Source: a phage
Reading direction: 5' to 3' (one strand)
NCBI GenBank assembly: GCA_020241865.1
Contig: GCA_020241865.1_4709.1
Length of the DNA stretch: 64,000 bases
Shown here: positions 11,301 through 48,136 of the stretch, one piece after another
How the letters are laid out: the number at the start of each line of letters is the position of its first letter
Numbering within the stretch: the first letter of the stretch is position 1
Position numbers and translations under genes: made by a program
Notes under the pieces: generated by a model
Seen by the model: only the letters and a program-made list of their open reading frames with translations
Databases searched by the model: none
What the model was told of the DNA's origin: nothing

Positions 11301-11399
11301 CTGACTTATGTATCACGGTGCCGGATGAATGTCCGGTGCAATGAAACCATCCGCAACGTTGTCGTCAAGAATATCGTCCAACGAAGCAGCTACGGTAGT

Positions 11400-13622
11400 T
11401 CAGTTAGTCTGAACAGGCAGCTTGATGTTTTCAGTGTAGACCTTACGCAGGTTCACAACGTTAATCAGACCCAGCAGCGGGCAGTTGTTAACGAAGCGGC
11501 AGCGCGGCTGAACCATGGTTTCTTTAGAAACCTGACCGTTACGGGTAACCTGAGCAACAGATACCAGTTCCGGTACATACAGGAACATACCGAAGGTCAG
11601 CGGATCCGGAGAACCCTGGATACCACGAGACAGGGTCACGAAGATCTTATCGCGCAGCATGACGTTCGGGTTATCTACAACCACGAAGTTGAAGCTTACA
11701 CCAACGGTGCGGAAATCACCATCGGTCTGCAGGAACTGCGGGATGTAGTTGTCAGTTGCTACTACGCAACGCGGTTTCTCATCAGCGTTGGAAGACAGCA
11801 GCTGCAGAGCTGGCTGATAACCAGACTCGGAGTACATGCGGTATGCCATCTCACGAATCACGTTCATGATCGCAGCAGACACTTCAGCACGACGTTCTGC
11901 AGTGGTGGTACCCTGAACAGATTTCTCCAGGTCCAGATTGATTTCTTCGAACCACGGACGGATCAGGTAACGACCGAAACCTTCGATCTGGATGTCGCCG
12001 AACTGACGGAAGCGAGAGGTCGCAACCGCTTTCAGTGCGTCTTTGTAGCTGAACAGTTTCTCAACCATCAGGTTGTCGAAACGTGCGTTAGCAGCTTGGA
12101 TCAGAACGTCCAGGTCAGCAGCGTTTTCTTCCCAATCCAGCGGACGAGGAATGGAGAACGGAGCCAGCAGGCCGATTGCGTAACGTTCTTGCTTCATGTT
12201 GAAGTCAAGGTGCTTACCGCGCTCACGACGGTTGCTGTTGTTACGGCGGATACGCAGTTCGTAACCAACCAGTTTGAAGCTCAGGTCTTCAGCCAGTTGT
12301 TTGAACTCTTCGCTCTTACGCGGTTGTTCGATGTTGTCCTGATCAACCAGGCGATACAGTTCAGCGTTAGCGCCGTTAACACGCAGACCGGCTTTCTCTA
12401 CGTTGGAAGAACCGTAAACTTCGATCGCCAGCTGAGCAGCAGATTTCGCATCGATGATGTCCTGCAGCGCTTCAGCTTTCGCGCCTTTAACGTCTTTGGT
12501 GTTCTCATCAACGAAGATGGAGTGGGTGTCGAACGCCAGGGTCATTTTGCGGAAGTCGCCTTCCAGGGATTTCTGGAAACCGTTGGTGATCAGACCAGAT
12601 ACGTCGAACGGTACGTAAGAGGTTTTGCTGTGCTTGGTAGATTTGATTTCCACCAGGATTTTGGTCAGCGTGATCTGGGCGTCCAGCGCGTCGGTGTTGT
12701 CGCTGTAACCGTTAGCCAGGATGCTATCGTCTTCAGCAATACCGATCATGTCGATCAGTTTATCAACAGCCAGGTAAGACGTTTTGTAAGTTACGCCTTT
12801 AATTTCGATGTCGCGCGGAGCAACGATAGCTTTGTCAACGAAGTACTGTGCGTTAGCATCGTCAGCACGATAGATCGGATGCAGATCGGTCACGTCGTTG
12901 GACAGAACGTCGTTGTACATGAACGCATCCAGCAGCGGACGACGTACCCAATCAGCCGGAGTACCGTCAGCGTTACGACGCAGGTGGTTGAACACCAGCG
13001 GACGACGGAAAGATACGTCGTAACCGATCTGGTTCGGAGCCAGAACGATGGTGTTGTACAGTTCGTTACCCATGCGGCTCAGACGAGAAGCCTTCACGTT
13101 GAACACAACGGAGTACGGCATCATGTCACGCAGTTCTTTCTGGTCGTAGGACAGCTGAACCAGTTCTTCAGATTCGCAACCGCAGGAATCAGCAGCCATC
13201 ATGACGAAGTTAGAGCTGTCAACTTCACGGCCAGACGGAGTGGTGCTGATGTTCATGGAACGTGCTTGTTTAGCATATTCTACCGGGTTACCATGAGCCA
13301 GCATGATCAGTGCTGCTGCACGAGCCTGCTGTGCGTTCATGGTGAACAGCTGTTCTTCAATACGCTGCTTCTCTTCCGGAGTGGTGGTTTCGAAGCCCAG
13401 CATGGACAGAACCGGTTCTTCGGCTTTACGGATGTCGCTGCTGAAGCTCTTAACATCCATTTCGTTAACCAGTTTGTCCATGGATTTGAAATCAACCTTA
13501 GAAGCAGATTCCATAGACAGGAAGGTGTTCTCCAGACCTTTGTCTGCTGGTTTGCTACCATTAGCGGTCAGGAACTGGCGAGTGGCCGCGACCTGTTGGC
13601 TAAGAAGGGTTTTATCATTCAT
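11400..13622 (-). CDS. highly expressed virion protein, candidate major capsid protein (740 aa)
   Basis: ORF track; ATG 13622 with AAAGGA upstream; strong codon bias (CTG, CGT, GGT, GAA dominate) and a 766-aa stop-free antisense frame; size fits jumbo-phage capsid proteins; no motif-level proof. Confidence 0.85.
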   Translation of the reverse strand: MNDKTLLSQQVAATRQFLTANGSKPADKGLENTFLSMESASKVDFKSMDKLVNEMDVKSFSSDIRKAEEPVLSMLGFETTTPEEKQRIEEQLFTMNAQQARAAALIMLAHGNPVEYAKQARSMNISTTPSGREVDSSNFVMMAADSCGCESEELVQLSYDQKELRDMMPYSVVFNVKASRLSRMGNELYNTIVLAPNQIGYDVSFRRPLVFNHLRRNADGTPADWVRRPLLDAFMYNDVLSNDVTDLHPIYRADDANAQYFVDKAIVAPRDIEIKGVTYKTSYLAVDKLIDMIGIAEDDSILANGYSDNTDALDAQITLTKILVEIKSTKHSKTSYVPFDVSGLITNGFQKSLEGDFRKMTLAFDTHSIFVDENTKDVKGAKAEALQDIIDAKSAAQLAIEVYGSSNVEKAGLRVNGANAELYRLVDQDNIEQPRKSEEFKQLAEDLSFKLVGYELRIRRNNSNRRERGKHLDFNMKQERYAIGLLAPFSIPRPLDWEENAADLDVLIQAANARFDNLMVEKLFSYKDALKAVATSRFRQFGDIQIEGFGRYLIRPWFEEINLDLEKSVQGTTTAERRAEVSAAIMNVIREMAYRMYSESGYQPALQLLSSNADEKPRCVVATDNYIPQFLQTDGDFRTVGVSFNFVVVDNPNVMLRDKIFVTLSRGIQGSPDPLTFGMFLYVPELVSVAQVTRNGQVSKETMVQPRCRFVNNCPLLGLINVVNLRKVYTENIKLPVQTN

Positions 13623-13771
13623 TGAAAGTATCCTTTACAGAATTAACTTATATAAGTCGGTCGATAGACCATAGCGTACACGCGTGCATGCGCCACTATA
13701 GTATCAGTAAACACTTACCGTTATTGAGGTCGTGATACAACACTAAAAATGCCGCATAACTTTTCCCTACG

Positions 13772-16063: not shown

Positions 16064-16112
16064 GCGGTTCCCTCCTCCAACCCGTAAGGGAAGGAGGAGG
16101 GGTTATGACCGC
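16064..16112. terminator. GC-rich stem-loop CCCTCCTCC-AA-CCC-GTAA-GGG-AA-GGAGGAGGG with extended flanking stem GCGGT/ACCGC, between convergent genes
   Basis: Perfect inverted repeat; A11 tract 16047-16057 gives a U-tract after the hairpin for minus-strand transcripts. Confidence 0.65.
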
Positions 16113-19433: not shown

Positions 19434-19465
19434 CCCTCTCCCAACCCGTAAGGGAAGGGAGAGGG
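19434..19465 (-). terminator. GC-rich stem-loop CCCTCTCCC-AA-CCC-GTAA-GGG-AA-GGGAGAGGG (family member)
   Basis: Perfect inverted repeat starting 5 nt after stop of gene 19470-20837. Confidence 0.65.
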
Positions 19466-24686: not shown

Positions 24687-24731
24687 CGCAGATTCCTGTT
24701 TGAAAGATAAGATATCACATGATGGTCGACA

Positions 24732-24768
24732 GCATAAAGCCCACCCCGAAGGGCGGGCTGTTTATGCG
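24732..24768 (-). terminator. stem-loop GCATAAAGCCCACCCC-GAA-GGGCGGGCTGTTTATGC (looser family relative)
   Basis: Imperfect inverted repeat whose CATAAA/TTTATG flanks also pair; between stop 24775 and start 24686. Confidence 0.5.
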
Positions 24769-24774
24769 TACGGA

Positions 24775-27700
24775 TTACTTGTAGGCACCGCAATGGGCTT
24801 TGATGAGGAAAAGCACCGCTTGCATCGGTTTATTGAACTGTTGCCATAACGTCAATGCCGGATGGAACAACCAATCTTCCAGGCCGAGAACAATACCGTA
24901 GTTAACGACATTATTAACATCGTTCTCAACGTTGAGTTCGCTATCCAGGAATTTATCGATTGAACGCAGGGTCTGCATGGCGTTGTCAGCAATAAGCCAA
25001 GCTTCATGTGCTTCACGAGCCGCACGCAGCACTGCCTCCAGTTCGCTGATAGTAGCTACCGGTAATTCCTCACTGGTGAGGTCGTCAGAAACCGTAAACT
25101 GGCGATTGATACCGGTGTAGATCCACTGCATCAGTTTCGCTGCTTCCTCGTTCGGGTTGTTACGCGTTGTCGCATAAGTCGCGCTCACCTTCACGATGTG
25201 CGTTTCACCAAGATACGCTTTGGACCCAACACCTTTACGATCGCTGTCTTTCCACGGTTGTACGGTAGCGACCATGAGCTTATCCCATTTCTGAATAGGA
25301 ATACGCTTCAGACCAACAACCGATCCAGCGGATGTTTCGGACTGGTTGCTCTTCCGCACGTCGCTGAGCTCACGATCGATCGCAACGATTAATTCACGCG
25401 TCATGTTACCAAGCATTTTGATTTCACCCAACGCAGCGATGAGCTTCTTCACATCGGTAACAGGTTCACCACCGATGGTAAGATGACGGATGAAACGTTT
25501 CAGAATAATCCGTTCTGCTGCTGGGTTACCGCGACGCGCTTTGGCCAGCGCTTGCTGTGTTTCGGCGAACAGCTTATCCCATGGAGCCGTAGCGGCGGTA
25601 TAGTAACGATGGTTGGTTTCAATCCAGTTACCGATACGGTTAACCGCGCTCTTAACGGTATCCATGAATCCTTCCATCGCAATTTCGGTAGCTTCGACGT
25701 TACCCTGGAAGTTATCGGGACCGATCTCGCGTGCCGCTACCAGAATACCTTCCACCGCGCTCACCGCGTGGCGACCGATAGCCAGATTTCGCTGCGCTTC
25801 TTCAGCACGCTCAACGAATTCCACCACCGCAGGATTATCAACGATTTCCGCCTCGGCAACAACACGTGTACCGGCATCGCCTTCCAGTGTTTCGATGGTG
25901 ACAACAGGATCGTTTTCACCAGCAACATCCTGGTATTCTTCCTGTTTGAGATCGCCGTTATCAGCCGCTGCGACAGCGGTGAGTATACGAACGGTAACAT
26001 CGCCGAGTTCTTTTGCAGCGAATCCGTAAACGGTGCATGCGGTCGTTGCAAAGTTCATCAGGGTACGTGTGCGCTGCGTGACGTAGCGTGCGCCCGATTC
26101 GTTTTCCACTTTGTCCAGATCGCGGAGTAACTGCTCAGCCGTCTCCTGAAGTTGAGTAACTGCTTTCAGGAGGTCTTCGTCAAACAGTTTCGTTGCCGCA
26201 CCGATCAGCATTTCAACGCTAACGTTGGACGGCACAGCATCATCCTGTTGTTTCATGGCGCTAAGTTCGTCACGGAACTCACGAATGCCGTTTAACGCAT
26301 CGTCGATAGAATATCCGAACGCTTTCACGCCCGCCATTCCAAGAGCTGCTTTCATTTCAGCTGGATGCTGAACTTGCTCGCCTTCCTTGCTGTTCTTTAA
26401 CTCATCGAAATATTTCTTCGACGCGTCCGCAATACGTTTACTGTCTTTAACCGCATTTACGATCTTATCGACAGATTTCGAGTCGTTTGCGAGCAGCGTA
26501 TCCAGTTTATTCCACTCAACGTCAACCTTCTTGGTGTCGCTCGGCGGAGGAAGCAGTTTCATCACTGGTGCTGTGCGTTGTTCTTTGGTCAGCTTGTCGG
26601 CCTTCTCTTCGATTTTTTTCTTATTAACACCAAAGAGATTTTTCAAACGCGCCACGAGGGCTTTTAAGAACTTCGCGACCGCTTCGTAAACCGATTTCAG
26701 AATCTGTTTAAAGCGACCCGGCTGCTTTTCCCCGTCTTCCAGATTGAGATCGCTGTTCAGTGCGACATCAAGCTGTTTGTACGATTCCATGATGTATTCG
26801 TCTTTGATTTCAGGACGAATCTCGAAGCTTTCCATCGGACCTTCAGCCGGACGGAATTCCATTTTCAGTTCGCCTTGCAGGGTAGGGTCGACAATGGCGA
26901 TCGCTTCACCCTGACCATCAGCGTTAAAGCGTTCAGCGTAACGAGTACGGCGAACAATAACACTCTTATCCCCATCAAGACGACGTACCACCATGGTGCC
27001 AGGAATGTACGGTTGTTCTGTTTCAATGACGGTTACATCTGTTTCACCCTCACCGAGAATAACAGATGCACGCTGTTCAACAACAGGAACATCTAATACA
27101 CCACGGGCTTCCAGCTCTTGATGAATTTCGAACGACTCTTGTTTCAGATCTTCATCTTCTTCGTTTTCGTCGTCTTCATCATCGTCACCTTTGGTGTTTT
27201 CATCACCCTTGGTGGTTGTGTCGTCGGTGGCACCAGCGTCAGCGTCGGTGTTAGCAGGTTCTTCGGACGCAGGTTCGGTGGTGTTGTCCTCCGTGGACGA
27301 CCCGTCAGTGTTATCGACATCAACATCACCTTGCAGTTCTGTTTCCTGAGCAACTGCTTCGGCTTTCTGCTCGCCGGTATTACCATCATTAGCGTCGACA
27401 ACAGGTTGTTCGTCAGCGACGGTATCTTCAACCTTTTCTACTTTCTCCACGACACGTTTAATCACGGTGACTTTGATGGGTTCTTCCGTTGTTTTGGTTT
27501 CTGGCGTCACCTCGGTTGCCGCAGCCGCTGTTTCAGCAACAGGTTCTGCTTTTTCCGGTTCGACGACATTACCTTTAACACCTTCGGTGGTTTCTGCAGG
27601 TTGCGCTGCCTGTTCGATTTGCGCCGGATTGGTTGGATCGATGGCGTTAGCCGCATCCTGAATCTTGTTCTTCAGGTTGTCGCGGTCAGCGTTAACGGTC

Positions 27701-28152
27701 GGGTCGTTGGTCACTTTCGGTGCCGGTGTTTCGGTCGGTGCGTTTGCCGGATACGGGTTCTTCGGCTCTTCGCCAGGTGCGGTCGGTACCGCGATCAGAA
27801 CGAACGGTTGAACATCGTTACCGTCTTCCATGGTTACGCCACCGTTGCTCGGTGTGAAACGAATTCGTAAACTACCATCAATAGGACGGGTCACAATAAC
27901 AGCACGTACGACATCCTCACCGTTCTCATCCGTGCTACGAATCACACGAACAGCGTCATCAACGGTAGCCCCTTCCTCGAGCGTATCTGATTCGATCGTC
28001 GCTTCGATGCTGTCTGGCCGTGCCGCTGTAGGTAATGCGATCACTTGCTCTTCTTTATCAGTAGAAAGCGTTGCTTTGACTTCGATAGGTGTATCGCCGC
28101 TTTCCAGGTTAAGATGCGACTTACGCATCAGATCAGCTAACGATTTTTTCAT
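24775..28152 (-). CDS. large virion-internal protein candidate (1125 aa) with acidic low-complexity central region; C-terminal part shares the EGF-x-IW motif of the paralog family
   Basis: ORF track; ATG 28152 with AGAGGA upstream; motif MEGFMDTVKSAVNRIGNWI. Confidence 0.85.
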   Translation of the reverse strand: MKKSLADLMRKSHLNLESGDTPIEVKATLSTDKEEQVIALPTAARPDSIEATIESDTLEEGATVDDAVRVIRSTDENGEDVVRAVIVTRPIDGSLRIRFTPSNGGVTMEDGNDVQPFVLIAVPTAPGEEPKNPYPANAPTETPAPKVTNDPTVNADRDNLKNKIQDAANAIDPTNPAQIEQAAQPAETTEGVKGNVVEPEKAEPVAETAAAATEVTPETKTTEEPIKVTVIKRVVEKVEKVEDTVADEQPVVDANDGNTGEQKAEAVAQETELQGDVDVDNTDGSSTEDNTTEPASEEPANTDADAGATDDTTTKGDENTKGDDDEDDENEEDEDLKQESFEIHQELEARGVLDVPVVEQRASVILGEGETDVTVIETEQPYIPGTMVVRRLDGDKSVIVRRTRYAERFNADGQGEAIAIVDPTLQGELKMEFRPAEGPMESFEIRPEIKDEYIMESYKQLDVALNSDLNLEDGEKQPGRFKQILKSVYEAVAKFLKALVARLKNLFGVNKKKIEEKADKLTKEQRTAPVMKLLPPPSDTKKVDVEWNKLDTLLANDSKSVDKIVNAVKDSKRIADASKKYFDELKNSKEGEQVQHPAEMKAALGMAGVKAFGYSIDDALNGIREFRDELSAMKQQDDAVPSNVSVEMLIGAATKLFDEDLLKAVTQLQETAEQLLRDLDKVENESGARYVTQRTRTLMNFATTACTVYGFAAKELGDVTVRILTAVAAADNGDLKQEEYQDVAGENDPVVTIETLEGDAGTRVVAEAEIVDNPAVVEFVERAEEAQRNLAIGRHAVSAVEGILVAAREIGPDNFQGNVEATEIAMEGFMDTVKSAVNRIGNWIETNHRYYTAATAPWDKLFAETQQALAKARRGNPAAERIILKRFIRHLTIGGEPVTDVKKLIAALGEIKMLGNMTRELIVAIDRELSDVRKSNQSETSAGSVVGLKRIPIQKWDKLMVATVQPWKDSDRKGVGSKAYLGETHIVKVSATYATTRNNPNEEAAKLMQWIYTGINRQFTVSDDLTSEELPVATISELEAVLRAAREAHEAWLIADNAMQTLRSIDKFLDSELNVENDVNNVVNYGIVLGLEDWLFHPALTLWQQFNKPMQAVLFLIKAHCGAYK

Positions 28153-28167
28153 AAAGCGTTATTCCTC

Positions 28168-29274
28168 TTAAAAGTAATATTTCAGCGCCTCGCGAGAGAC
28201 ATCAAGCATAGCCGCTGTTGAATTCGTAAAGAACTCGGCATAGCCCACAAGCGGCACCTTGATCCACGCGGTATACGCTGTAAGGTATCGAGAAAGGGCT
28301 ACCATAGCATCATCAGAAGCAGTAGTAACTGACAACTGACCTTGTTGACGATAAACGTCGTTAAGTTTTGCTTGTAGATTCCCTGCGATTTCGAGTAACT
28401 CGTTGGCGTACTTTTTACGATGGTAACTAACCAGTAAATCAACACCCGTATTTACCGACTCGAGTAGCACACCAACTTGTTCTAATGTTGGCATTGTAAC
28501 CACCATATCCCGTTCAACTGACGGTACATCCTGGACTTCAAACCGTGCGGATTGAATGGTGAGGGACTGTTGAATTGAACCAGAACCTGAAGCGGTAACC
28601 TGATCGAGTCGTAGCGTACGGTTACCCAGTAACGTTACATTGACGAGTCTCGATTCGTTCAGCGTGCTGTAGACTTTATGCAATAACGTATACGCGTCAC
28701 GGTTAATCACATCGATTAATGCGGTATCCGTCTGTTTTAAGATAATGTCGAGCGCTCTATCTAACGTATTAGCGAACTGCTTGAAATCATCACGGAACGA
28801 CGAAGACAAGAGATATTCAGCGATTGCCAAATTCTGTTTGTATAACGTATTCCCAGTTGTGAAGTCGAATCCAAAACTGTTCCCATACCGTAGGTGCGGT
28901 GCCAGCGTTGACGAAGCTTCGAAGCTTTGCGCGATGGGTTTACGACCAACGGCTTTTGTGTAGTGACGGCGGATGTTGCTGAGTTCGAGCTGTAGTGCGC
29001 GACTACGATCGATAAACCGGGCGATAAACGCAGTGATGTTCCGCAACGTTGTCCAGATCGCATCGATGATGGCTTTGATGATTTTCATCGCAAGCTGATT
29101 GTACGATTCCATCGTGAGGAGATCAGCACTTTCTGTGGTATAACCGGTTGCCGGAATACCGCCTGCTTGCTGATAAATAAGCTGGTGAATTTGTCGTTGC
29201 GTTGCTGTCTCTGGCACAGGTAATGTTTTTAACAAGCTTAACGCTTGAATCTGTCCGTCATAGGTCTGCAGCAT
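28168..29274 (-). CDS. hypothetical protein, probable paralog-family member (about 368 aa)
   Basis: Track ORF 28168-29316 trimmed to ATG 29274 (GAGGA upstream, 17-nt overlap with upstream stop). Confidence 0.8.
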   Translation of the reverse strand: MLQTYDGQIQALSLLKTLPVPETATQRQIHQLIYQQAGGIPATGYTTESADLLTMESYNQLAMKIIKAIIDAIWTTLRNITAFIARFIDRSRALQLELSNIRRHYTKAVGRKPIAQSFEASSTLAPHLRYGNSFGFDFTTGNTLYKQNLAIAEYLLSSSFRDDFKQFANTLDRALDIILKQTDTALIDVINRDAYTLLHKVYSTLNESRLVNVTLLGNRTLRLDQVTASGSGSIQQSLTIQSARFEVQDVPSVERDMVVTMPTLEQVGVLLESVNTGVDLLVSYHRKKYANELLEIAGNLQAKLNDVYRQQGQLSVTTASDDAMVALSRYLTAYTAWIKVPLVGYAEFFTNSTAAMLDVSREALKYYF

Positions 29275-30559
29275 TGCTGGTTTCCTCAAGTTCGAGATGC
29301 GCGTCAAGATAATCATTAAGACCGTCGATGACGTCGCAGACAGTTAACAGGAATCGGGCAAAAGCAACCGCCTGGAAGCCGACGACGTTACGCGCGATAC
29401 CCACACGTTGAACGATAGCGGATGCGGTGGTATCGTCGTTGTCCATCTGTTGTAGTAAACGCTCGTAAGGTTGAATCCATTCGTCCTGGTCGGCAAGGCC
29501 TGCTTCAAGACAACGTTTAAATTCCAACTGTCGTAGCGTAGACCATAATGTACTTAATGCGTTGATGATTGTATTGGTTCCGTCGATAACGTCGTTCAAC
29601 GGTAAGAAACGGAATCCGTCTTTTGCTGATTGGAACGGTGCAGCCTCCCACACAACGCTGAATTGTGTTCCTGTTGCGTCTTCGATGTTGTGTAATTTAA
29701 GGTAGGAAGCACCAACAGGTGCGTCAACGACGATATCGTCTGTTCCGGTAGGCTTTAACGGCTTCTCGCATAACGCGTCGTTGATGACTTCGAGGATATT
29801 CTCCCAACAGGCTTCGTTTTCTGCAGCGATACCTTCTTTGTTATCCGCTGATGGTGCTTTTAGTAGCTGCATTAATAACGGATCGAGTTGACGATGCCAT
29901 GCTGCGAGGATTCCTGTGTTCGTTACGATGTTTTCTGCGGTTTGTCGTAAATCAGCAATGCTGCTTACCGCACCGCCTTTCGGATGAAGATATCGCCAGT
30001 TGTAGGGAAAGTTCTCCCAGAATGCGTTATCTTCATCGACGTCGTATTCGGAAATAGTTTTCAACGCAGCCGCTTTCTTTAATAACGGCTTCACCTGACG
30101 AACGAATCGACGATAACAACGATTGCAGATATCGATCGCGTAGCGGTATAATTCGTTCATGTAAAGCCATAACGCTCGGGTTGCTTCTTTTGCGGTCTTG
30201 TCAAAACTTTCCATGTTCAAGCTCATCCCGCTGGAAGTTTCCTCTTCCAGACCCTCGATGATGTGGTTTGGATCCATTCCCATTCCGGCTGCTGCGGTCG
30301 ATGCGATATGTTTGATGGTGTTAATATCGCGTTCTTCAACTTCAGCCATGTTTGGGACGATATCCAACCTGAGTTTATTTAATGTTTGAAGGTGTTGTTC
30401 ACCTTCTTTCATCACCGTGTTTGTTTCGTCGATTGAGTGAAACTGATTCTCAATATTACTGGCATCGAGAATATTGCCAGCGATACCGAACGATTCTACA
30501 GGTTCATCATCAATCCCTTGAAACAACGATGTCATGGGTTGTTGTAACACGTTTTCCAT
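29258..30559 (-). CDS. paralog-family protein (433 aa)
   Basis: ORF track; ATG 30559 with AGGAG upstream; motifs IKHIASTAAAGMGMD and MESFDKTAKEATRALWLYM. Confidence 0.85.
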   Translation of the reverse strand: MENVLQQPMTSLFQGIDDEPVESFGIAGNILDASNIENQFHSIDETNTVMKEGEQHLQTLNKLRLDIVPNMAEVEERDINTIKHIASTAAAGMGMDPNHIIEGLEEETSSGMSLNMESFDKTAKEATRALWLYMNELYRYAIDICNRCYRRFVRQVKPLLKKAAALKTISEYDVDEDNAFWENFPYNWRYLHPKGGAVSSIADLRQTAENIVTNTGILAAWHRQLDPLLMQLLKAPSADNKEGIAAENEACWENILEVINDALCEKPLKPTGTDDIVVDAPVGASYLKLHNIEDATGTQFSVVWEAAPFQSAKDGFRFLPLNDVIDGTNTIINALSTLWSTLRQLEFKRCLEAGLADQDEWIQPYERLLQQMDNDDTTASAIVQRVGIARNVVGFQAVAFARFLLTVCDVIDGLNDYLDAHLELEETSNAADL

Positions 30560-30665
30560 TTGGGACTCCTACGTAGGAAAATCTTGGCGGGTGATCATGT
30601 CCGCCATTTACCTTCTGAACCGTTGATTCAGAAGTCAAAAGATAACCGGATACCAACGCCATAAA

Positions 30666-30697
30666 CCTTCCTCCAACCCGTAAGGGAAGGAGGAAGG
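30666..30697 (-). terminator. GC-rich stem-loop CCTTCCTCC-AA-CCC-GTAA-GGG-AA-GGAGGAAGG (family member)
   Basis: Perfect inverted repeat between stop 30708 and start 30559; arms carry a compensatory T/A change relative to other copies. Confidence 0.65.
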
Positions 30698-30707
30698 GAT
30701 ATAGTGG

Positions 30708-31997
30708 TTATGCTTTTTCGGTTACAGCGTCGAAGTATTTCGCTGCAGCAAATACAGCATCCGCATATTGGCGTATCGAAGCGCGAAGAATCTTGGTTGA
30801 CAATACAGTACTTAAGCGCGCCATTTCAGAAACCGCGCTTACATAAGGACGGATGGTTTCACGATCGGCTTCAGGCAGCTTGTCGAGCATATCACCCCAC
30901 TTCGTTTTGATTTTCATACCGTTGAGTTTAGCGGTACGCTCCACAGAACCGGCCAAAGCTTCAACCATGTGGAAATAAGAGGAGTCTATCGTACGGAACA
31001 CGTTAAGATAGGAAGTCAATGCGCCTTTCAGTTCGTTATCGTCTTTGAAAATGTTTGCGTTCTCTATCTCACCGGCCACCGTCATCTCGGCCTCAACCCG
31101 AATATTTTTCACCAACGTATAGGCTTTAATCGCATCACGTTCGTTTTCAACAGCGTCGAGACCTTGAATAACGAATTCCTTCCCACCGCTCTCTGGAAAA
31201 ACAACTTTATTCAGAGCTGATTTGATCGCCAGCAGGTATTTGTCTAAGATAGACGGAAGCAGTGTGAGGTCAGTGAGGTCTGCGACCTTTTTATTGATAT
31301 CAGCCACATGCTTAAACAGTGAATCCGTCCCGCTTGCGCTTGCAGCGAGTTGTTCGATATGCTTGCTTGCAAACACGGCATTCGCTGATTTAGCATTAGG
31401 GAACATATTGACCATATTTCCAGTGGGCTTATCCAACTGTTTGATATGGCGCTCACCTTTATTCACAGCGGTTGCGATCTTGACAATTTTGTTGTATGCA
31501 ACGACCAGGTTCTTGAACAACATCTGGAACAGTTTGAACAGTTGCTCAGCGATATTCGCAATGATTACCCAAACTGCGTATAACGCTTGTGCTGCGCGTT
31601 CTTTAAAGCCTTCCAGCACAATAGCTTGCCCTTCCACCAAACAATCGTCAGCTTGGAACATGTCTTCATCGGACATCCCCAGGTTAGCCGCTGACGTCGA
31701 AGCAATCTGACGGATAAGGGCGATGTCGCTCGCACGTGCTTCAGGGATCGTAGGTGCGATCATGTACGCGGTATCTTCCAGCGTTGCTGAGGTACGCACC
31801 GCAATTTCAGCCAGTTCGCTGGATTCATCGATTGTCTCGTCGGTACGTCGAATCACCAACTCAACTTCGTCCTCTTCGATTTCTGCGTTAGGATCGTGTT
31901 GCTCCGCTGGAGTTGCCGCAAGAAGATCTTCGGCGCTGAGCAGTGCGAGTTCGAATGCGTTTTTATTGACGTTATCAAAAAGAGAGATGCGGGCCAT
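30708..31997 (-). CDS. paralog-family protein (429 aa)
   Basis: ORF track; ATG 31997 with AAGGA upstream; motifs IRQIASTSAANLGMSD and LEGFKERAAQALYAVWVII. Confidence 0.85.
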   Translation of the reverse strand: MARISLFDNVNKNAFELALLSAEDLLAATPAEQHDPNAEIEEDEVELVIRRTDETIDESSELAEIAVRTSATLEDTAYMIAPTIPEARASDIALIRQIASTSAANLGMSDEDMFQADDCLVEGQAIVLEGFKERAAQALYAVWVIIANIAEQLFKLFQMLFKNLVVAYNKIVKIATAVNKGERHIKQLDKPTGNMVNMFPNAKSANAVFASKHIEQLAASASGTDSLFKHVADINKKVADLTDLTLLPSILDKYLLAIKSALNKVVFPESGGKEFVIQGLDAVENERDAIKAYTLVKNIRVEAEMTVAGEIENANIFKDDNELKGALTSYLNVFRTIDSSYFHMVEALAGSVERTAKLNGMKIKTKWGDMLDKLPEADRETIRPYVSAVSEMARLSTVLSTKILRASIRQYADAVFAAAKYFDAVTEKA

Positions 31998-32006
31998 GTT
32001 AGTTCC

Positions 32007-33323
32007 TTAACCTTTGGTATAAGCTTTAACGAGAGTGTTGATAAATGAGGTCAATGCACGAAGATATTGGTAAGCGAATTGGTTTTCAATACGGTTCTCT
32101 TTACCGCAAAGCAGAATCGCGCGCTTAACGAGCTTAGGATAGATCTCAACGTACGGTTGGTAGCTCGCATCAAAATTCTGCTCGTTGAAGCGTTTCATGG
32201 TAACGTATTGGATGCGTTCCATGGTACGGATTTTATTACGAGAGAAGATCTCAGAGAAAGCACGCCCACGTTTTGTTACCATCAACAGATCTTTCGCGAA
32301 CGTCAGTTGTCGAACGCTACGCAAATCGTCAGGTGTCGGTAGGACGTACGTTTCCGGGTCACTATCCCATTCAATATCTTCAACGACAATATCCAAGTCG
32401 AGGTAACGTTTAACAGCATCGATGATATTGTCTTTTGACGCATCGAATTCTTTCAAGAAGACCGCACCGTTGACATAACGGATACGTTTTCCGGAAACCG
32501 TTGGAGTGATAACGTCAGTACCTTCCACAGAACCGCGATTTTCCAGTGTCGATTTGACAGCGTTCAAGAAAGTCAGATAATCAACGGGAAGTTTTTCAAC
32601 CTTATCTAAATGGAAGTCGATGATGTTTAACCCTAACCCATCAATAACTGAATAACCGTCCGATTTAAGGAACATCTGATTGAAGGTATCAATGTTGCTT
32701 TTCAGCGCGTCTACACCACCAACGTTGTTACGGTTAGGGAAAAGTGTCCGCCACTCCGCTTTAAACGCAACTTCTTTATTTTCCTCGTATTTGCCTTTAG
32801 GCATTTGTTCGAGGTCTGCAACGGCTTTCTGAAAATTGCGCGTCTCGTCGTAAACAAGACGGGTAAGCTTCTCGAAGGCTGCTGCCAGAGTCAGGGCAAT
32901 ATCAACGATGATATCCCAGATCTTTTTCATGGCTTTTACAACGGTGTCCTTAAACCCTTCAACAACCAAAGCTTCTCCAACCTCAACACGATCGGTTGGG
33001 GTCAGCAATGCTTCGGAGGGTAGACCCAGAGCAATCGATGCGGATTCTTGAACGTTACGAACTAATGCAACGTCACTGTAGTTAGCCGATTCGATAGTCG
33101 GAGCAACATCAAAACTGATTTCCCGCAGTGCAGCAACAGCAGGGAAAGCACGATCAAGTGCATCTTCATGTTCGTCGATTGTCGCTAAACGTAATTCAAC
33201 ACCATCGGCGTCGATGACTTCAGTGGTAGGCTCCACGGCAAGCGCCTCAGCAACAATAGGATCTTTTTCAAACGCCTCAAGGCTGATATCGCCCTGGGTC
33301 GCAAATAGCGGTATGTGTACCAT
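32007..33323 (-). CDS. paralog-family protein (about 438 aa)
   Basis: Track start 33347 is TTG; ATG 33323 has GGAGA upstream; motifs VRNVQESASIALGLPS and VEGFKDTVVKAMKKIWDII. Confidence 0.85.
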   Translation of the reverse strand: MVHIPLFATQGDISLEAFEKDPIVAEALAVEPTTEVIDADGVELRLATIDEHEDALDRAFPAVAALREISFDVAPTIESANYSDVALVRNVQESASIALGLPSEALLTPTDRVEVGEALVVEGFKDTVVKAMKKIWDIIVDIALTLAAAFEKLTRLVYDETRNFQKAVADLEQMPKGKYEENKEVAFKAEWRTLFPNRNNVGGVDALKSNIDTFNQMFLKSDGYSVIDGLGLNIIDFHLDKVEKLPVDYLTFLNAVKSTLENRGSVEGTDVITPTVSGKRIRYVNGAVFLKEFDASKDNIIDAVKRYLDLDIVVEDIEWDSDPETYVLPTPDDLRSVRQLTFAKDLLMVTKRGRAFSEIFSRNKIRTMERIQYVTMKRFNEQNFDASYQPYVEIYPKLVKRAILLCGKENRIENQFAYQYLRALTSFINTLVKAYTKG

Positions 33324-33371
33324 GTGTTGTCTCCAGTAATGATTCAAAAGATAAACCTGAGCGGCATAGAA

Positions 33372-33403
33372 CCCTCTCCCAACCCGTAAGGGAAGGGAGA
33401 GGG
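33372..33403 (-). terminator. GC-rich stem-loop CCCTCTCCC-AA-CCC-GTAA-GGG-AA-GGGAGAGGG (family member)
   Basis: Perfect inverted repeat between stop 33426 and start 33323. Confidence 0.65.
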
Positions 33404-33425
33404 GATATGTCAGTTTATTAACTGA

Positions 33426-34748
33426 TTACTGCTGTGCTGCGTCAGCCGGTTTCTCAGCCGCCTGGCCGCCGTACTCTTTCAGCATTTTAGCAACGCCATC
33501 CAGGACAGCGTTACCTGCCTGAACACCGTATTTCATCAGACCGGTCTGCGGGTTCACGTAGCAGGAACGTGCGTCTTTCAGTGCAGACAGTACAGCTTGA
33601 ACACGCTGTTTTTCCTGAGCGGAAACTTCGCCTTTCTTAGACAGATCGGCTTCCATATCGTCACCGAATTTAACAGCGTCTTTGAAGCCCTGGGATTTCT
33701 TACCGATGTTGCCTTTCAGCGCCAGCAGTTTGTCGGCCAGTGCTTCAACACCGCTAACCGCAGCAGCCAGCTGATTCAGGGACAGGACGGTAGCTTCAAC
33801 TTCTTTTGCTTCGCCAGAGCGTTCCCAGGTTACTTTACCATCATTGGCTTTGAAACCCCAACCTGCCGGGCCAGCAACGTCAGCAATCGCCGGAGCGTTC
33901 AGTTTATCAGCGTACTCGGTGTGAGATTTAGCAACAACGGTACCAACGAATTTATCAGCACGATCGTCAGCAGCCTTCATTGCTTTCTCGAAGGTGTCAG
34001 CGATTTTGGTCGCGCCGGTAACCAGATCATCACCACCGATGTAACCAGAAACGCCGCTACCCAGTTTAACTTTGGTATTTTTAGCAGCGCCTTTACGCTT
34101 GGCGATCATTTCTTTCAGTTTAGCAGCACGTGCTTTCAGTTTGGTCGCGCCGTCGAAGATGCGATCCATGAACTTCACGAAGGTTTCCCAGGAAGTCTTC
34201 AGGAAGTTCTTGATGGTTGCCCACAGTTTCTGCCACCATTTTTGTTCTTCCAGGAAGATCATGTTGGTTGCATCGTAGCGGGAAGCGGAACCACCGAAGC
34301 TTTCGAAGGAAGGCATGGTTTCCGGCAGTTTGAAACCGATAGTACCACACAGACGTTTCAGATTACGCATGTGTTCTTGCGCGGTCTGTGCAGACATACC
34401 ACCGTCTTTCAGGTAGCTTTCGGTTGCAACAACGGTTTCCGTCAGTTCATCCATGGCTTCGTCCATGGCTTCTGCGGTTTCGTCGTCTTTTGCAATTTCG
34501 ATAACAACAGCATCAACCTGCTCGATATCACCACGAACTTCGATAGCCAGTTCGGTTTCAGCTGCGGTATCTTCAGCGATTTCAGCACGTTCGGTCAGTT
34601 CAGCCACAACGGTTTCATCCGCTGGTGCAGCATCAGCTGCCGGTTCTGCTTCAACGGTTGCCGCTGCATCCGGGTCGATCTCAGCAGCCAGTTGAACCAG
34701 CTGTGCGTTAGATGGATTTGCGACAAGACGATCAAAAATAGAAGGCAT
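33426..34748 (-). CDS. highly expressed paralog-family protein (440 aa), abundant virion protein candidate
   Basis: ORF track; ATG 34748 with AAAGGA upstream; strong codon bias and 390-aa stop-free antisense frame; motif SFESFGG...KLWATI. Confidence 0.85.
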   Translation of the reverse strand: MPSIFDRLVANPSNAQLVQLAAEIDPDAAATVEAEPAADAAPADETVVAELTERAEIAEDTAAETELAIEVRGDIEQVDAVVIEIAKDDETAEAMDEAMDELTETVVATESYLKDGGMSAQTAQEHMRNLKRLCGTIGFKLPETMPSFESFGGSASRYDATNMIFLEEQKWWQKLWATIKNFLKTSWETFVKFMDRIFDGATKLKARAAKLKEMIAKRKGAAKNTKVKLGSGVSGYIGGDDLVTGATKIADTFEKAMKAADDRADKFVGTVVAKSHTEYADKLNAPAIADVAGPAGWGFKANDGKVTWERSGEAKEVEATVLSLNQLAAAVSGVEALADKLLALKGNIGKKSQGFKDAVKFGDDMEADLSKKGEVSAQEKQRVQAVLSALKDARSCYVNPQTGLMKYGVQAGNAVLDGVAKMLKEYGGQAAEKPADAAQQ

Positions 34749-34791
34749 AATTTGTTTCCTTTACAATAAATTGCACATTAGCTAATGCGGC

Positions 34792-34816
34792 TTAAGTGAA
34801 CCGTCAGCTCACTTAA
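34792..34816 (-). terminator. stem-loop TTAAGTGA/TCACTTAA overlapping stop codon of gene 34813-35343
   Basis: 8-bp perfect inverted repeat with 9-nt loop, read from sequence. Confidence 0.5.
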
Positions 34817-35343
34817 AAGCCCTTAAAACCCGGTGCCATAGGTTGCCCAAACACCGCATTCAAAGTACATATGATGTCCTGGATGCCATTGTCCCAATGG
34901 AGCCAAGTACGCACCATCTCTTCGTCTGACAACGTGATATAACTCATAAGTTTACCGCTGCTTTCCAGGCGTTGGTGTGAACTTAACGACTGACGATCTG
35001 ACCAGTTATCAATCAATTGACCAGCAATCTGAACGTTCGTGTCTCGTCTACCCGTGTGAATGAACCGTAGCGTATCACGGATAAACTCCAGACTGGTGAA
35101 GTTCAGATTTGGGTTATGGCTGTTCATTTCCACCCAATCGGTGATGGGGTACATCAAACGATAAAGGGTAGAAAGAACCTGGCGTTCATATTTCCAGTCA
35201 TCGAGAGGAGTACCGTCGACCAGACGCTGATACAAACTAACAACGTCACGATCGTAGTTCTCCTGGCGTTTTACACCGTTAACCGGAAATCCGAAGAACC
35301 CGGTACCGTATAACGTTAAAGGGACGTCACGAAGTGCATTCAT
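34813..35343 (-). CDS. hypothetical protein (176 aa)
   Basis: ORF track; ATGA overlap with upstream stop. Confidence 0.75.
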   Translation of the reverse strand: MNALRDVPLTLYGTGFFGFPVNGVKRQENYDRDVVSLYQRLVDGTPLDDWKYERQVLSTLYRLMYPITDWVEMNSHNPNLNFTSLEFIRDTLRFIHTGRRDTNVQIAGQLIDNWSDRQSLSSHQRLESSGKLMSYITLSDEEMVRTWLHWDNGIQDIICTLNAVFGQPMAPGFKGF

Positions 35344-41646: not shown

Positions 41647-41678
41647 CCCTCCTCCAACCCGTCAGGGAAGGAGGAGGG
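41647..41678. terminator. GC-rich stem-loop CCCTCCTCC-AA-CCC-GTCA-GGG-AA-GGAGGAGGG between convergent genes
   Basis: Perfect inverted repeat between stop 41625 (plus) and stop 41688 (minus). Confidence 0.65.
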
Positions 41679-45340: not shown

Positions 45341-48136
45341 TTAAGCTAATTTACCGAAACCGGCTTTTTGCAGTTTCTCGTTGATGATTTTCGCTTCAGC
45401 GAAGACGTAATCGCGGTAGGCGGTCACTAACGCATCCACACGTGAACGCAAGGCTTCTTCGAAGCTATACCACGCTGCGATTTCACGAATCTGTGCGTTG
45501 ATATAATCAACGGTTGAGCGAAGCTCGGTTGCGTTTTCTTGCGGAACGGCTTTCACCTGGCGAGCAACGTCATTTAAACGGCGGAACTGTGTTTCGATTT
45601 CTTTAAACTTACTGTCGGCAAGTTTGCTGAATTCGTCACCAGAACGGGTAAATAACAGATAGCTGTTGCCGTCAAGTGCGGTCGCTAACTGCTGAAGTAC
45701 GTTGGTGTCCGGATACACAGGAGTACCGCTTTGCAGTACTTTCTCACCGAATTCCGCGAAGTCCTTCGGTGGTAAGTGTGCAGACGTTGTCAATTCGTTG
45801 AAACGGAAAGTCAGCGAATTATCATACAGCATCCGGTACGCTTCCATACCCTGTTTCATGGTACCGGCCAGGTTAGCCAGACGCGGAGCAATCTCGCCTT
45901 CTTTAGCGCGTTTCTGGTCTTCTAACGCCCCTTCGAGTTCTTTACACTGGTCGTTCAGATACACGATACGATCAGGACGTAGACGACGCATCTCACGAAG
46001 AATAGTATCCAGCTTACCTTCCTGGAAATAACCCAACGTTAAAGACGTACACGCTTGCTGAAGACGATCGAACACCGGTAAGGTTACCATCTCCTTACGG
46101 ATACCATCAACAATCGCAGAAACAGCCGAAAGTTTCTGTTCTGTAGTCAATGGAACATCAGAGGCCGACTTGCTGGGTGCACCAACAACGTTACGCATTG
46201 CGTCGGTATCCTCGGTTTTATCAACCTCTTTACGAACATGCTCATCAGGAACATAAACGTTCGCGTTACGTTTCGCCTGCTTGATGGCGTCGTTGGCCGC
46301 TTTTTCGGTGGCCGCTACGCTATCGGCACGTTTCTTCAAGAGTTCAATAATCCAGAGCAACAGACGACGAATCGCAGTGTAGGCTGTCGTGATGATGACA
46401 CCGATAACAGCCATCTTCATGATACCGAACGATTCCATGGTCGGCTCTAACGCTTGGTCTGGCATATACCGTTCACGCAGCTCCAGATAGATCTGCTCAT
46501 CTGGTTTGCTGACCTCACCACGATGCGAAGTCCGATAAATGGCTTCGTCAATCTCAACAAGATCTTTGCGTGCCTGACGGTCAGATTCTGTTAGGTAAGC
46601 ACAACCGGATACGTCGTCTTCGAAGCTTAAGAATTTGAAAAAGTCACTGACGTCGATCTTGATCTTCTTCGCTTCATTATCGACATCGATAACATCTTTT
46701 TTCTGTGCCTGATATTCCGCTTTGATGTCGTTCACCGGCTTCAACGCACGTTCTTTTAATACCTGCACGATCTGTTTCCAGTCGGCGTCACGCTCAAGAA
46801 CAAGGAAGTAATTCTTGAGTTCAAAAGCACGGTAACGCGCAACGAGTTGTTCTACCTGAATATGAGCGAGTTGCACATCCATCAGCCAACGCGACATTGC
46901 TGAGATCAAACGGCTATAAGCAAGCAATGTCTGATATGTTAGCTTCATGTGCTTTTCGTACAGCTCAATATCGCCGTCTTGAATATCAGCCGTTGGGTTC
47001 ATTTCCTTCGTTGCTTTGAAGATCTGTTCGGCCTCATTTAACGTTTGTTCGAATTTGACTTCATTAAACGTGTCAAACGGTTCAGCCAACTCCATCATTC
47101 GATCGTGAAGCTCACGAACCCAGGCTTCCTTATTGTTGCGAATAGCTGCGTCATCGTGAAGTTCAGTTTGATGTTTCTGTACCCATTCTTCGACGATATC
47201 AGCGGCGGCAACAATTCCTGTACCATCGGAAACTAACGGAACAACTCCAGCAAGTACGCCTACACACGCCGGGGTTTTCCAATAATCGTTCAAAGCGTTT
47301 CTGAATTCAACGATGGATTGTACGTTTGGTACCGTATCCAAAAACGTACTGCCGTTACGGCTCATTGTCGTTACGATATCAGCGAATTCCTTCTGCTTAG
47401 CGGTAACAAAAGGAACCAGGACCATAAGCCATTCAGCAACCGACTTCGCTTTCTCTTTCAGATTTTTGTCAGCGATTTCCTTAAGGTTTATCGCACCACC
47501 GTAACCTGCAAGCTCTTTATATACGTCGCTAAGGGTCATCTGTTTATCCAACATTTCTTTGAAACGTGGGTAATCAGCACCTAACGCATCGACAATATCG
47601 TTGATTACGTCATCAGTTGTTGCGATAAACTTCTTCGTATCAACGTTTGAATATTTCCAGACGTATCGTACTGCTTTCTTGATTCCTGCAAAGATAAACG
47701 CCCAGATACGCTTGATGAGTTCCCAGACTTTCTTCGCGCCATCGACAAACAGTTTAGAGACCTTGGCAACGAATCCTTCCTGCACCAATTCAACGCCGTT
47801 ACGTGATGGGATTTCCGTGAAGAAAGCATCCGGCAGTTGTTTCGGGAATGCGTCACCAAGACGCATACGCAGTTCCGGTACATCAGCACGAGAAATACCG
47901 CGTGTTACTAATTGTTCGTGAAGACGAACGTTTTCTTCACCAGAGGTCACGAATTCGTCAACATCGAAGGAGACCATTGTTTCCTGATCTTCGGTGGTAA
48001 CGACGCTTGAACCATCACTGGTTTGGATGTCTTCGTCAGGGAATGCCATGAGCATACCGTGACGCATTTCAACCACCCCGTAATCGGTTGCTAAACCGAA
48101 TTCGTTGTGGTCTGGGGTAATAACTGGGATACTCAT
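45341..48136 (-). CDS. large hypothetical protein (931 aa) with hydrophobic segments
   Basis: ORF track; ATG 48136 with AGGAG upstream; ATGA overlap with upstream stop. Confidence 0.85.
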   Translation of the reverse strand: MSIPVITPDHNEFGLATDYGVVEMRHGMLMAFPDEDIQTSDGSSVVTTEDQETMVSFDVDEFVTSGEENVRLHEQLVTRGISRADVPELRMRLGDAFPKQLPDAFFTEIPSRNGVELVQEGFVAKVSKLFVDGAKKVWELIKRIWAFIFAGIKKAVRYVWKYSNVDTKKFIATTDDVINDIVDALGADYPRFKEMLDKQMTLSDVYKELAGYGGAINLKEIADKNLKEKAKSVAEWLMVLVPFVTAKQKEFADIVTTMSRNGSTFLDTVPNVQSIVEFRNALNDYWKTPACVGVLAGVVPLVSDGTGIVAAADIVEEWVQKHQTELHDDAAIRNNKEAWVRELHDRMMELAEPFDTFNEVKFEQTLNEAEQIFKATKEMNPTADIQDGDIELYEKHMKLTYQTLLAYSRLISAMSRWLMDVQLAHIQVEQLVARYRAFELKNYFLVLERDADWKQIVQVLKERALKPVNDIKAEYQAQKKDVIDVDNEAKKIKIDVSDFFKFLSFEDDVSGCAYLTESDRQARKDLVEIDEAIYRTSHRGEVSKPDEQIYLELRERYMPDQALEPTMESFGIMKMAVIGVIITTAYTAIRRLLLWIIELLKKRADSVAATEKAANDAIKQAKRNANVYVPDEHVRKEVDKTEDTDAMRNVVGAPSKSASDVPLTTEQKLSAVSAIVDGIRKEMVTLPVFDRLQQACTSLTLGYFQEGKLDTILREMRRLRPDRIVYLNDQCKELEGALEDQKRAKEGEIAPRLANLAGTMKQGMEAYRMLYDNSLTFRFNELTTSAHLPPKDFAEFGEKVLQSGTPVYPDTNVLQQLATALDGNSYLLFTRSGDEFSKLADSKFKEIETQFRRLNDVARQVKAVPQENATELRSTVDYINAQIREIAAWYSFEEALRSRVDALVTAYRDYVFAEAKIINEKLQKAGFGKLA

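Follow-up and report, generated by a model that had tools for sequence, protein, structure and literature searches.

The PF12699 internal head protein array of a Goslar-like jumbo phage and its predicted propeptide junctions

Few components of chimallivirus virions are as abundant as the proteins of the Pfam family PF12699 (phiKZ_IP, 'phiKZ-like phage internal head proteins'), whose function was called 'a key unsolved mystery' in a 2026 paper on Escherichia phage vB_EcoM_Goslar (bioRxiv 10.64898/2026.04.21.720040). Here we describe six consecutive minus-strand genes, A to F, at positions 24775-34748 of a 64,000-nucleotide stretch of phage DNA (GenBank assembly GCA_020241865.1, contig GCA_020241865.1_4709.1; hereafter the window). 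This segment has 94.2% DNA identity to Goslar, a nucleus-forming phiKZ-like jumbo phage, and the window is classed as part of a Goslar-like chimallivirus. The region is very probably the PF12699 array of such a phage, comprising six late genes whose products would be made as precursors and packed in the capsid, at least the major one being ejected.

The closest described system is that of Goslar itself, whose gp053-gp058 are direct orthologues of F to A. According to a preprint of April 2026, PF12699 is carried by gp53 and gp58, its fold is seen in AlphaFold3 (AF3) models of gp54-57, the virion contains all six proteins and the locus is syntenic with phiKZ gp92-97 (bioRxiv 10.64898/2026.04.21.720040). 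The same source gives ~2150 copies of gp58 per virion, ~330 of gp53, ~70 of gp54, ~46-50 of gp55, ~55-60 of gp56 and ~52 of gp57; it does not discuss motifs or processing of gp53-gp58. The dominant member, gp58, fused at its C-terminus to superfolder green fluorescent protein (sfGFP), is packaged, injected into the host and stays with the early-infection vesicle (PMC10541120), while there is no report on injection of gp53-57.

In Pseudomonas phage phiKZ, the products of gp092-gp097, together with gp162 and gp163, are known as 'inner body' proteins and belong to PF12699. The window resembles phiKZ in having a six-gene array at the same position with a large last member, and in the same junction with two Glu residues; E is like gp96, F is like gp97 and A is of the gp93 type. 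However, sequence identity is ~20% or less, and the phiKZ sites have Ser at P3 (the third residue back from the cut). Copy numbers of 100-200 are reached by several phiKZ members, in contrast to the single dominant member of Goslar-type phages, and the inner body documented in phiKZ has not been seen in Goslar.

Salmonella phage SPN3US has two paralogues only, gp53 and gp54 (paralogue family A, ejection proteins), of very high copy number; their SPLA3 copies score 254 and 193 bits against PF12699. Both are made with long acidic propeptides, of 125 and 137 amino acids (aa), and here cleavage has been demonstrated experimentally, at an A-x-E motif. The prohead protease gp245 cuts at a Glu that aligns with one in the window proteins (see below), the sites having been mapped by mass spectrometry through semi-tryptic peptides, (E)GWKETLKDLFER in gp53 and (E)SLWDDIK in gp54 (PMC10052503). 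In the SPLA3 copies the corresponding junctions read ...AAQE/GWKETLK and ...VARE/SLWDDIK, the slash marking the bond after Glu. SPN3US gp54 is also cleaved at an upstream Glu, E124, and some propeptide peptides are kept in the virion despite processing (PMC10052503). The literature on SPN3US and phiKZ already describes this paralogue family, including how it varies in size and is processed (PMC5694885, PMC11297242, PMC10052503). An analogous logic is found in the T4 internal proteins IPI, IPII and IPIII and in Alt, which undergo N-terminal capsid targeting, prohead-protease cleavage after Glu, packaging with the DNA and ejection into the host (PMC5694885). There is no sequence relationship to these proteins, however, and the T4 targeting sequences have 10-20 residues rather than more than 100, the internal proteins being small and basic.

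The array and its family

The six open reading frames (ORFs) correspond one-to-one to Goslar gp058-gp053 and have the coordinates given in the first-pass annotation of the window. Their starts are identical to those of the RefSeq Goslar annotation, where all six are labelled 'hypothetical protein', and the Goslar orthologues have the same order, lengths and spacers, with 78-99.5% aa identity to the window proteins. The genes run in the same order as Goslar gp053-063 and phiKZ gp087-097. In phiKZ, genes 087, 088, 089, 090 and 091 are followed by the six internal head protein genes 092-097, the last of which is large (816 aa); the window array also closes with a large protein (1125 aa), and homologues of phiKZ ORF089, 088 and 087 are located downstream on the map. 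The synteny anchor is gp059 (34813-35343, minus strand), a homologue of phiKZ gp91: Pfam PF25618 (PhiKZ_gp91) is found on its orthologues in L008 and L009, two genomes of a related Goslar-like clade, and Goslar cryo-electron microscopy (cryoEM) has placed its product in the vertex-binding complex. The position of the array after the gp089-gp091 homologues is collinear in phiKZ, PS119XW, RAY, PhiEaH1 and an SPN3US-like phage, which have 6, 6-7, 5, 3 and 2 array genes, respectively.

Protein A (33426-34748, minus strand like all the genes of the array; 440 aa) has 99.5% aa identity to Goslar gp58 and is the dominant PF12699 protein; its N-terminal region (residues 1-167) is acidic and leads into a helical domain. 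It scores 79.3 bits against PF12699, well above the gathering score of 27 bits, and matches a PHROG 'internal head protein' family at 2e-9. Protein B (gp57 orthologue, 32007-33323, 438 aa; 22.3 bits, E-value 8.9e-5) and protein E (gp54 orthologue, 28168-29274, 368 aa; 22.9 bits, E-value 5.6e-5, collinear between residues 53-359 and profile positions 89-384) fall just below the gathering score and match the PHROG families weakly. Protein C (gp56 orthologue, 30708-31997, 429 aa) reaches 9.8 bits, and proteins D (gp55 orthologue, 29258-30559, 433 aa) and F (gp53 orthologue, 24775-28152, 1125 aa) have no direct Pfam match to PF12699. For calibration, phiKZ gp96 scores merely 31.8 bits, and phiKZ gp97, the counterpart of F, is without a match.

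Since the final-round E-values of jackhmmer are inflated by self-inclusion, first-inclusion values were traced instead, and a hidden Markov model (HMM) was built without any window sequence, from 18 PF12699-type proteins of phiKZ, PS119XW, RAY, PhiEaH1 and the SPN3US-like phage. Among 90 window ORFs this independent HMM finds A-F and nothing else at E<10 (A 1e-10, F 7e-5, E 6e-4 in a second alignment, B 3e-3, C and D weak). In a search seeded with SPN3US gp53, residues 763-925 of F were first included at an E-value of 8e-4. When profiles from four Goslar-like genomes were aligned with a reference PF12699 profile by hhalign, A gave 96.8%, B 91.3% and F 761-1125 94.8% over 279 columns (E-value 5e-8). 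Bridging sequences were also found: a B/C/D profile, run exhaustively with HMMER against 1.84 billion representatives, recovered only 11 proteins, three of which pass the PF12699 cut-off (P0149 with 28.6 bits and a profile E-value of 1.9e-31, P0154 with 144 bits, P0155 with 38 bits). An orthologue of E, P0034 (96% identical), has a precomputed PF12699 match. Protein E is the short member, lacking the long acidic propeptide, and is the positional as well as sequence counterpart of phiKZ gp96; the two align collinearly and have LLGN and Y..W...P in common (hhalign against the gp96 group, E-value 4e-4).

Direct comparisons link only B, C and D. BLASTP gives 72, 44 and 45 bits for the three pairs (E-values 3e-17 for B-C, 3e-8 for D to B, 1.5e-8 for D to C), hhalign 98% (B-C), 78% and 90%, and phmmer with B as query 3.5e-16 to C and 2.5e-6 to D; this mutual similarity is limited to about the first 200 residues. 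For A, E and F, neither BLASTP nor hhalign detects significant similarity in direct comparison, be it to B, C and D or among the three. The three-sequence B/C/D HMM and the shallow sub-family hhalign profiles have too little power to link A, E and F, and jackhmmer runs from A, E or F alone stalled in the small local database. Word-indexed searches with D, E and F returned essentially only Goslar-like proteins (76-100% identity), the exception being the phiKZ gp96 cluster, whose sequence sat in the query alignment. AlphaFold2 (AF2) models from shallow alignments had a confidence (pLDDT) of 44 for D and were confident within F 441-1125 solely at residues 508-731, its C-terminal part (unit 2, below) staying under 50. 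Foldseek searches of BFVD and the Protein Data Bank (PDB), from which the D model was left out, gave nothing at E<=1e-3; the best BFVD matches, weak at E>=2e-3, are chimallivirus virion or internal head proteins. No PDB chain is sequence-similar to A.

One could argue from the non-significant pairwise comparisons of A, E and F, and from the failure of the three-sequence and shallow profiles to link them, that the shared motifs are a chance likeness of unrelated helical, acidic proteins and that there is no gene family. This reading is refuted by the profile and synteny results and is to be regarded as extremely improbable: the independent HMM puts exactly A-F at the top of 90 ORFs, Pfam, PHROG and bridging matches point the same way, synteny with phiKZ is perfect and the published AF3 models share a fold. 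Pfam, PHROG, the independent HMM, hhalign and the bridging matches are the grounds on which we accept A-F, from sequence comparison, as members of one family, E and D on somewhat weaker evidence. The first-pass annotation, which had described a six-member paralogue family, was right at this family level, while by pairwise criteria only B, C and D are demonstrably related. We propose that these three arose by a lineage-specific triplication; B/C/D and phiKZ gp93/94/95 appear to be independent lineage expansions, to judge from the pattern of reciprocal similarity rather than from a tree.

Protein F can be divided into three parts. Its C-terminal third had been assigned to the family from the outset, and unit 2 (residues 761-1125, 24778-25872) is indeed a clear PF12699-type domain by the hhalign result given above. 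It is nearly invariant in the four Goslar-like genomes (94-99.6% aa identity). Unit 1 (residues 441-760, 25873-26832) begins with PMESF...IMESY, followed by a helical domain that AF2 models with confidence at residues 508-731. Whether it is a second, divergent PF12699-like unit we regard as an even call, since hhalign is marginal (52%) and the independent 18-protein HMM lends no support. The N-terminal region (residues 1-440, 26833-28152) is highly acidic and of low complexity, Asp and Glu making up ~21% of residues 1-827, and has no family match (hhalign below 1% against all profiles).

Iterative searches seeded with PF12699 proteins also recruited phiKZ gp86 (L003 5656-6945), a protein of the vertex-binding complex, and its homologues in PS119XW and RAY; the window gene gp065 (45341-48136) appeared in them at E-values of 0.09-0.27. 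The recruitment of gp86 could be due to a distant relationship or to drift of a helical profile.

Packaging and ejection

Gene A stands out by its codon usage, as the first-pass annotation had noted. The effective number of codons (ENC) is 30.0 (window median 51.3) and the frequency of optimal codons (Fop) 0.82 (window median 0.52), and only the major capsid protein (MCP) gene is comparable (Fop 0.84). This agrees with the ~2150 gp58 copies per Goslar virion. The synonymous divergence (dS) of A is the lowest in the array (0.08, 0.38 and 0.28 between Goslar-like genomes) and well below that of most neighbours, which is consistent with codon-usage selection in a very highly expressed gene. Long antisense ORFs lie opposite A (33597-34769, plus strand, 390 aa) and the MCP gene (11325-13625, plus strand, 766 aa); we rejected both as genes, considering them shadow ORFs of the two most codon-biased genes.

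That the six are internal or ejection proteins of a phiKZ-like jumbo phage, as first suggested, is borne out by PF12699 membership, by collinearity with phiKZ and by the published Goslar virion mass spectrometry and gp58 injection. The suggested comparison with the phiKZ and SPN3US inner-body families likewise proved apt, the array being collinear with phiKZ gp092-gp097 and the family profile matching. We envisage that A, B, C, D and F are precursors with an alpha-helical PF12699 domain behind an acidic N-terminal region; A, E and F would have phiKZ counterparts in a gp93-type protein, gp96 and gp97. The precursors would be incorporated into the prohead, cut at or near a conserved Glu by the S80-type prohead protease of the phage, and finally share the filled capsid with the DNA. 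To judge from gp58, A at least would then be ejected with the genome and remain with the early-infection vesicle.

Some results count against parts of this picture. The AF2 models of D and of F unit 2 are too poor for a fold test, and no Foldseek match reaches E<=1e-3. Moreover, no inner-body density was seen by cryoEM of Goslar, whether in micrographs, in the C1 map or in symmetry-expanded classes (bioRxiv 10.64898/2026.04.21.720040). The term 'inner body', used in the first-pass annotation, is therefore to be kept as a family label and not transferred as a structure.

An alternative is that the six are mainly capsid-building proteins, an internal cement or scaffold, whose N-terminal pieces line the capsid as do residues 14-84 of phiKZ gp93, and gp162. 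Indeed, N-terminal fragments of gp93 and gp162 are bound beneath the hexamers of the phiKZ capsid (PMC11297242), helical density reminiscent of the PF12699 fold has been left unassigned near the Goslar vertex complex (Goslar preprint), and the N-terminal regions are the most conserved parts of these proteins. However, gp58 enters the host by injection and remains associated with the early vesicle, its ~2150 copies exceed any reported count of regular capsid sites, and no gp93-like fibres were modelled in the Goslar capsid. We therefore think it improbable that capsid building is the main role, although the two roles are compatible: the N-terminal piece could act as cement and the C-terminal domain as cargo.

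The putative propeptide junction

The first-pass annotation ascribed two motifs to all six proteins: motif 1, (I/V)(K/R)x(I/V)(A/Q)S(T/A)(A/S)A...GM (IRQIASTSAA and its relatives), and motif 2, (L/V/M)E(G/S)F(K/D)xxxxxAxxx(I/L)W, an ESF/EGF sequence continuing as an '...A...IW' helix. This has to be qualified. Motif 1 is present as originally written only in C (residues 95-103) and D (82-90), and in relaxed form in B (88-96). Motif 2 is found as written in B and D, and C deviates at one position. F lacks motif 1 and has motif 2 with a two-residue insertion (IAMEGFMDTVKSAVNRIGNW, 824-843), and E has only a variant of motif 2 (TMESYNQLAMKIIKAIIDAIW), of ESY...AIW type. A matches neither pattern as written, and its 'FESFGG' (E149) corresponds in the alignment to another conserved site, further upstream. 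The strict motifs occur nowhere else among 357 ORFs from the window and five other phage loci. In view of these gaps, and of the missing pairwise similarity of A, E and F, the description as six proteins sharing two motifs was over-stated at the motif level.

What the proteins do have in common is the Glu of motif 2, which falls in a single column when they are aligned by hmmalign to two independently built family HMMs. The column is also Glu in phiKZ gp92-97, in PhiEaH1 gp224 and gp226, in the PS119XW members, in most RAY members and in two SPN3US-type proteins, and it is the column of SPN3US gp53 E125 and gp54 E137, at which the propeptides are removed. In the window the junctions are LVVE122/GFK in B (LVVE/GFKDTVVKAMKKIW; motif 1 to motif 2 at residues 88-136, 32916-33062), IVLE129/GFK in C (IVLE/GFKERAAQALYAVW; residues 95-143, 31569-31715), LNME117/SFD in D (LNME/SFDKTAKEATRALW; residues 82-131, 30167-30316), LTME56/SYN in E (LTME/SYNQLAMKIIKAIIDAI; residues 53-73, 29056-29118) and IAME827/GFM in F (IAME/GFMDTVKSAVNRIGNW; residues 824-843, 25624-25683). 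In A two conserved Glu residues are found by hmmalign with both HMMs (residues 145-185, 34194-34316): PSFE149/SF (site 1) and IFLE167/EQKWWQKLW (site 2), the latter being the IFLE167/EQKWW junction of the common column. A second conserved Glu 12-18 residues upstream is also seen in phiKZ (LE/NY) and SPN3US (ARE/SY and AQE/SY). PSFE149/SF of A is this upstream site, and the 'ESF/EGF' of the first-pass annotation therefore conflates two sites.

Because the SPN3US Glu is a cleavage site, the amphipathic '...A...IW' stretch would be the first helix of the mature domain. Motif 2 would then mark the junction between propeptide and mature domain, and motif 1 a conserved helix within the propeptide, where phiKZ gp93-95 have a counterpart, I-S/T-R/K-Q-x-A-A-F. 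The net charge changes at this point: before the Glu it is -17 to -26 in A-D (-26 in A) and -80 in F, and after it roughly neutral in A, B, C and F, D being still acidic (-17). From the alignment, the Goslar-type proteins are, on balance, probably cut at or near the motif-2 Glu by the S80-type prohead protease. The published Goslar virion peptide table, of which the part listing peptides that start with A to EL was covered, contains peptides from the mature regions of gp57 and gp56 but lacks good tryptic peptides from their propeptides, three in gp57 and one in gp56. The MCP may offer a parallel. Goslar MCP is found without its first 157 residues (bioRxiv 10.64898/2026.04.21.720040), and in the nearly identical window MCP, of the same length (740 aa), G-C-E150 and S-E-E153 closely precede that point, consistent with a protease of S/A/G-x-E preference.

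A number of observations weigh against such cleavage. The phiKZ and SPN3US proteases prefer Ser, Ala or Gly at P3, which is found only in F (A-M-E) and at site 1 of A (S-F-E); the P3 residues are Val, Val, Asn and Thr in B, C, D and E, and Phe at site 2 of A. Goslar virions yield peptides from the N-terminal regions of gp58 (55-72 and 115-128), gp55 (52-62) and gp53 (84-96 and 202-220). Furthermore, a weak Goslar peptide spans gp53 E827/G828 (area 541) and one of moderate intensity spans gp53 IME456/SY (area 17,600). Given these N-terminal and site-spanning peptides, processing would be incomplete, or absent at some sites. A separate gp53 virion peptide, EIRPEIKDEYIMESYK (residues 444-459; about 26776-26823 of the window), has a non-tryptic N-terminus after Phe443 (MESF/EIRPE), perhaps as a chymotryptic artefact or through cleavage in vivo after a residue other than Glu.

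These data could also mean that the conserved Glu and the helix are kept for structure or assembly, for instance for docking to scaffold or capsid, and that the Goslar-type proteins are full-length or cut elsewhere. Such an explanation would account for the P3 residues of B-E, for the N-terminal peptides of gp58, gp55 and gp53 together with those across the two predicted gp53 sites, and for the fact that the Goslar preprint reports no processing of gp53-gp58. Yet the aligned Glu is the mapped cleavage site in both SPN3US proteins, SPN3US too retains propeptide peptides although it is processed, the gp57 and gp56 propeptide peptides are missing from the part of the Goslar list that was covered, and the injected part of gp58 was seen by means of a C-terminal sfGFP fusion. 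We consider a purely structural role of the Glu unlikely, if by no means negligible, and retain cleavage at or near it as the preferred explanation.

Spacers and divergence among Goslar-like phages

The spacer between A and B (33324-33425, minus strand) holds a G+C-rich hairpin with the core CCTTCCCTTACGGGTTGG, then TATG and TTATCTTTTGA. The same hairpin/TATG/TTATCTTTTGA cassette is found between C and D (30560-30707), where the Goslar annotation has a terminator. After F (24687-24774), where Goslar likewise has an annotated terminator, a different hairpin (AGCCCGCCCTTCGGGGTGGGCT) is followed by TATG and TTATCTTTCAA. The core CCTTCCCTTACGGGTTGG occurs five times in the window (16077-16094, 19441-19458, 30673-30690, 33379-33396 and 41654-41671, all on the minus strand), with 0.01 copies expected by chance; the copies at 30673 and 33379 are intergenic, within the array, and TATG follows each of them. 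Exact TTATCTTTYRA is found three times in the 64 kb (24700-24710, 30635-30645 and 33344-33354, minus strand), in each case in an array spacer and 16-75 nucleotides upstream of the next start codon. Hairpin, TATG and TTATCTTTYRA may form a cassette of terminator and phage (late) promoter, which would divide the array into the units A, B-C and D-E-F. A scan for sigma-70 promoters and terminators gave no more than chance would, which is unsurprising in a phage that has RNA polymerases of its own.

Goslar-like contigs of ~235-250 kb are present in many isolate assemblies of Salmonella, E. coli and Shigella and in metagenomes (those of P0035, P0015, P0025 and ~100 others, besides L008 and L009). 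P0035, which comes from a 238-kb contig in an assembly of Salmonella Enteritidis, matches F 441-1125 with 100% identity. In a tblastn search of 50,697 phage records, A matched only Goslar and, weakly, one Pseudomonas phage.

Along the array, nucleotide identity to Goslar is 93-100% except in two sharp troughs. One (30737-31600) covers the mature domain of gp056 from right after motif 2: identity falls to 49-83% and dS rises about ten-fold, from ~0.2 to 2.0. The N-terminal part of C is 95.6% identical to Goslar gp56 and the C-terminal part 68.1%, so that the mature domain is a divergent allele. The other trough (25857-26580) corresponds to gp053 residues ~524-765, with identity of 59-90% and a roughly five-fold rise of dS from ~0.1 to 0.66. 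In these two segments, the gp056 mature domain (68% aa identity, dS ~2) and gp053 residues ~524-765, the window carries alleles divergent from those of Goslar. They look like recombinational allele replacements at a domain boundary.

A comparison with the L008/L009 clade, involving four Goslar-like genomes, gives 73-93% aa identity for the array genes versus 91-99% for their neighbours, and a ratio of nonsynonymous to synonymous divergence (omega) of ~0.05-0.18 versus ~0.01-0.04 for most neighbours. Between clades, the C-terminal parts of B, C and D are 66-83% identical and the N-terminal parts 87-93%. In these four genomes it is the mature domain that diverges; the N-terminal part with its motifs is preserved. 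This invites the proposal that the low-copy gp53-gp57 types are modular injected effectors, in which an N-terminal packaging and processing module, extending to the motif-2 Glu, is joined to a helical 'cargo' that Goslar-like phages swap by recombination at this boundary. We put this forward as speculation with little likelihood in its favour; omega stays at ~0.1 throughout and gives no direct indication of positive selection.

The gene family is real and its interpretation supported, but both are already known, the Goslar preprint, the gp58 injection work and the SPN3US/phiKZ literature having come before; a known array has been re-identified in a Goslar relative, and no new kind of object is described. 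New but minor are the proposed reading of the motifs as a cleavage site, the possible second unit in F and the apparent recombinational replacement of the gp056 mature domain and a gp053 segment relative to Goslar. Two by-products may be of use. One is a residue-level prediction of the junction between propeptide and mature domain for each Goslar-type paralogue. The other is the apparent swapping of mature domains by recombination while the N-terminal module is kept, which could help to separate the packaging part of these proteins from the host-acting part. Should the modular reading hold, the array would represent not inert packing material but a payload locus undergoing diversification, perhaps specific to host or defence.

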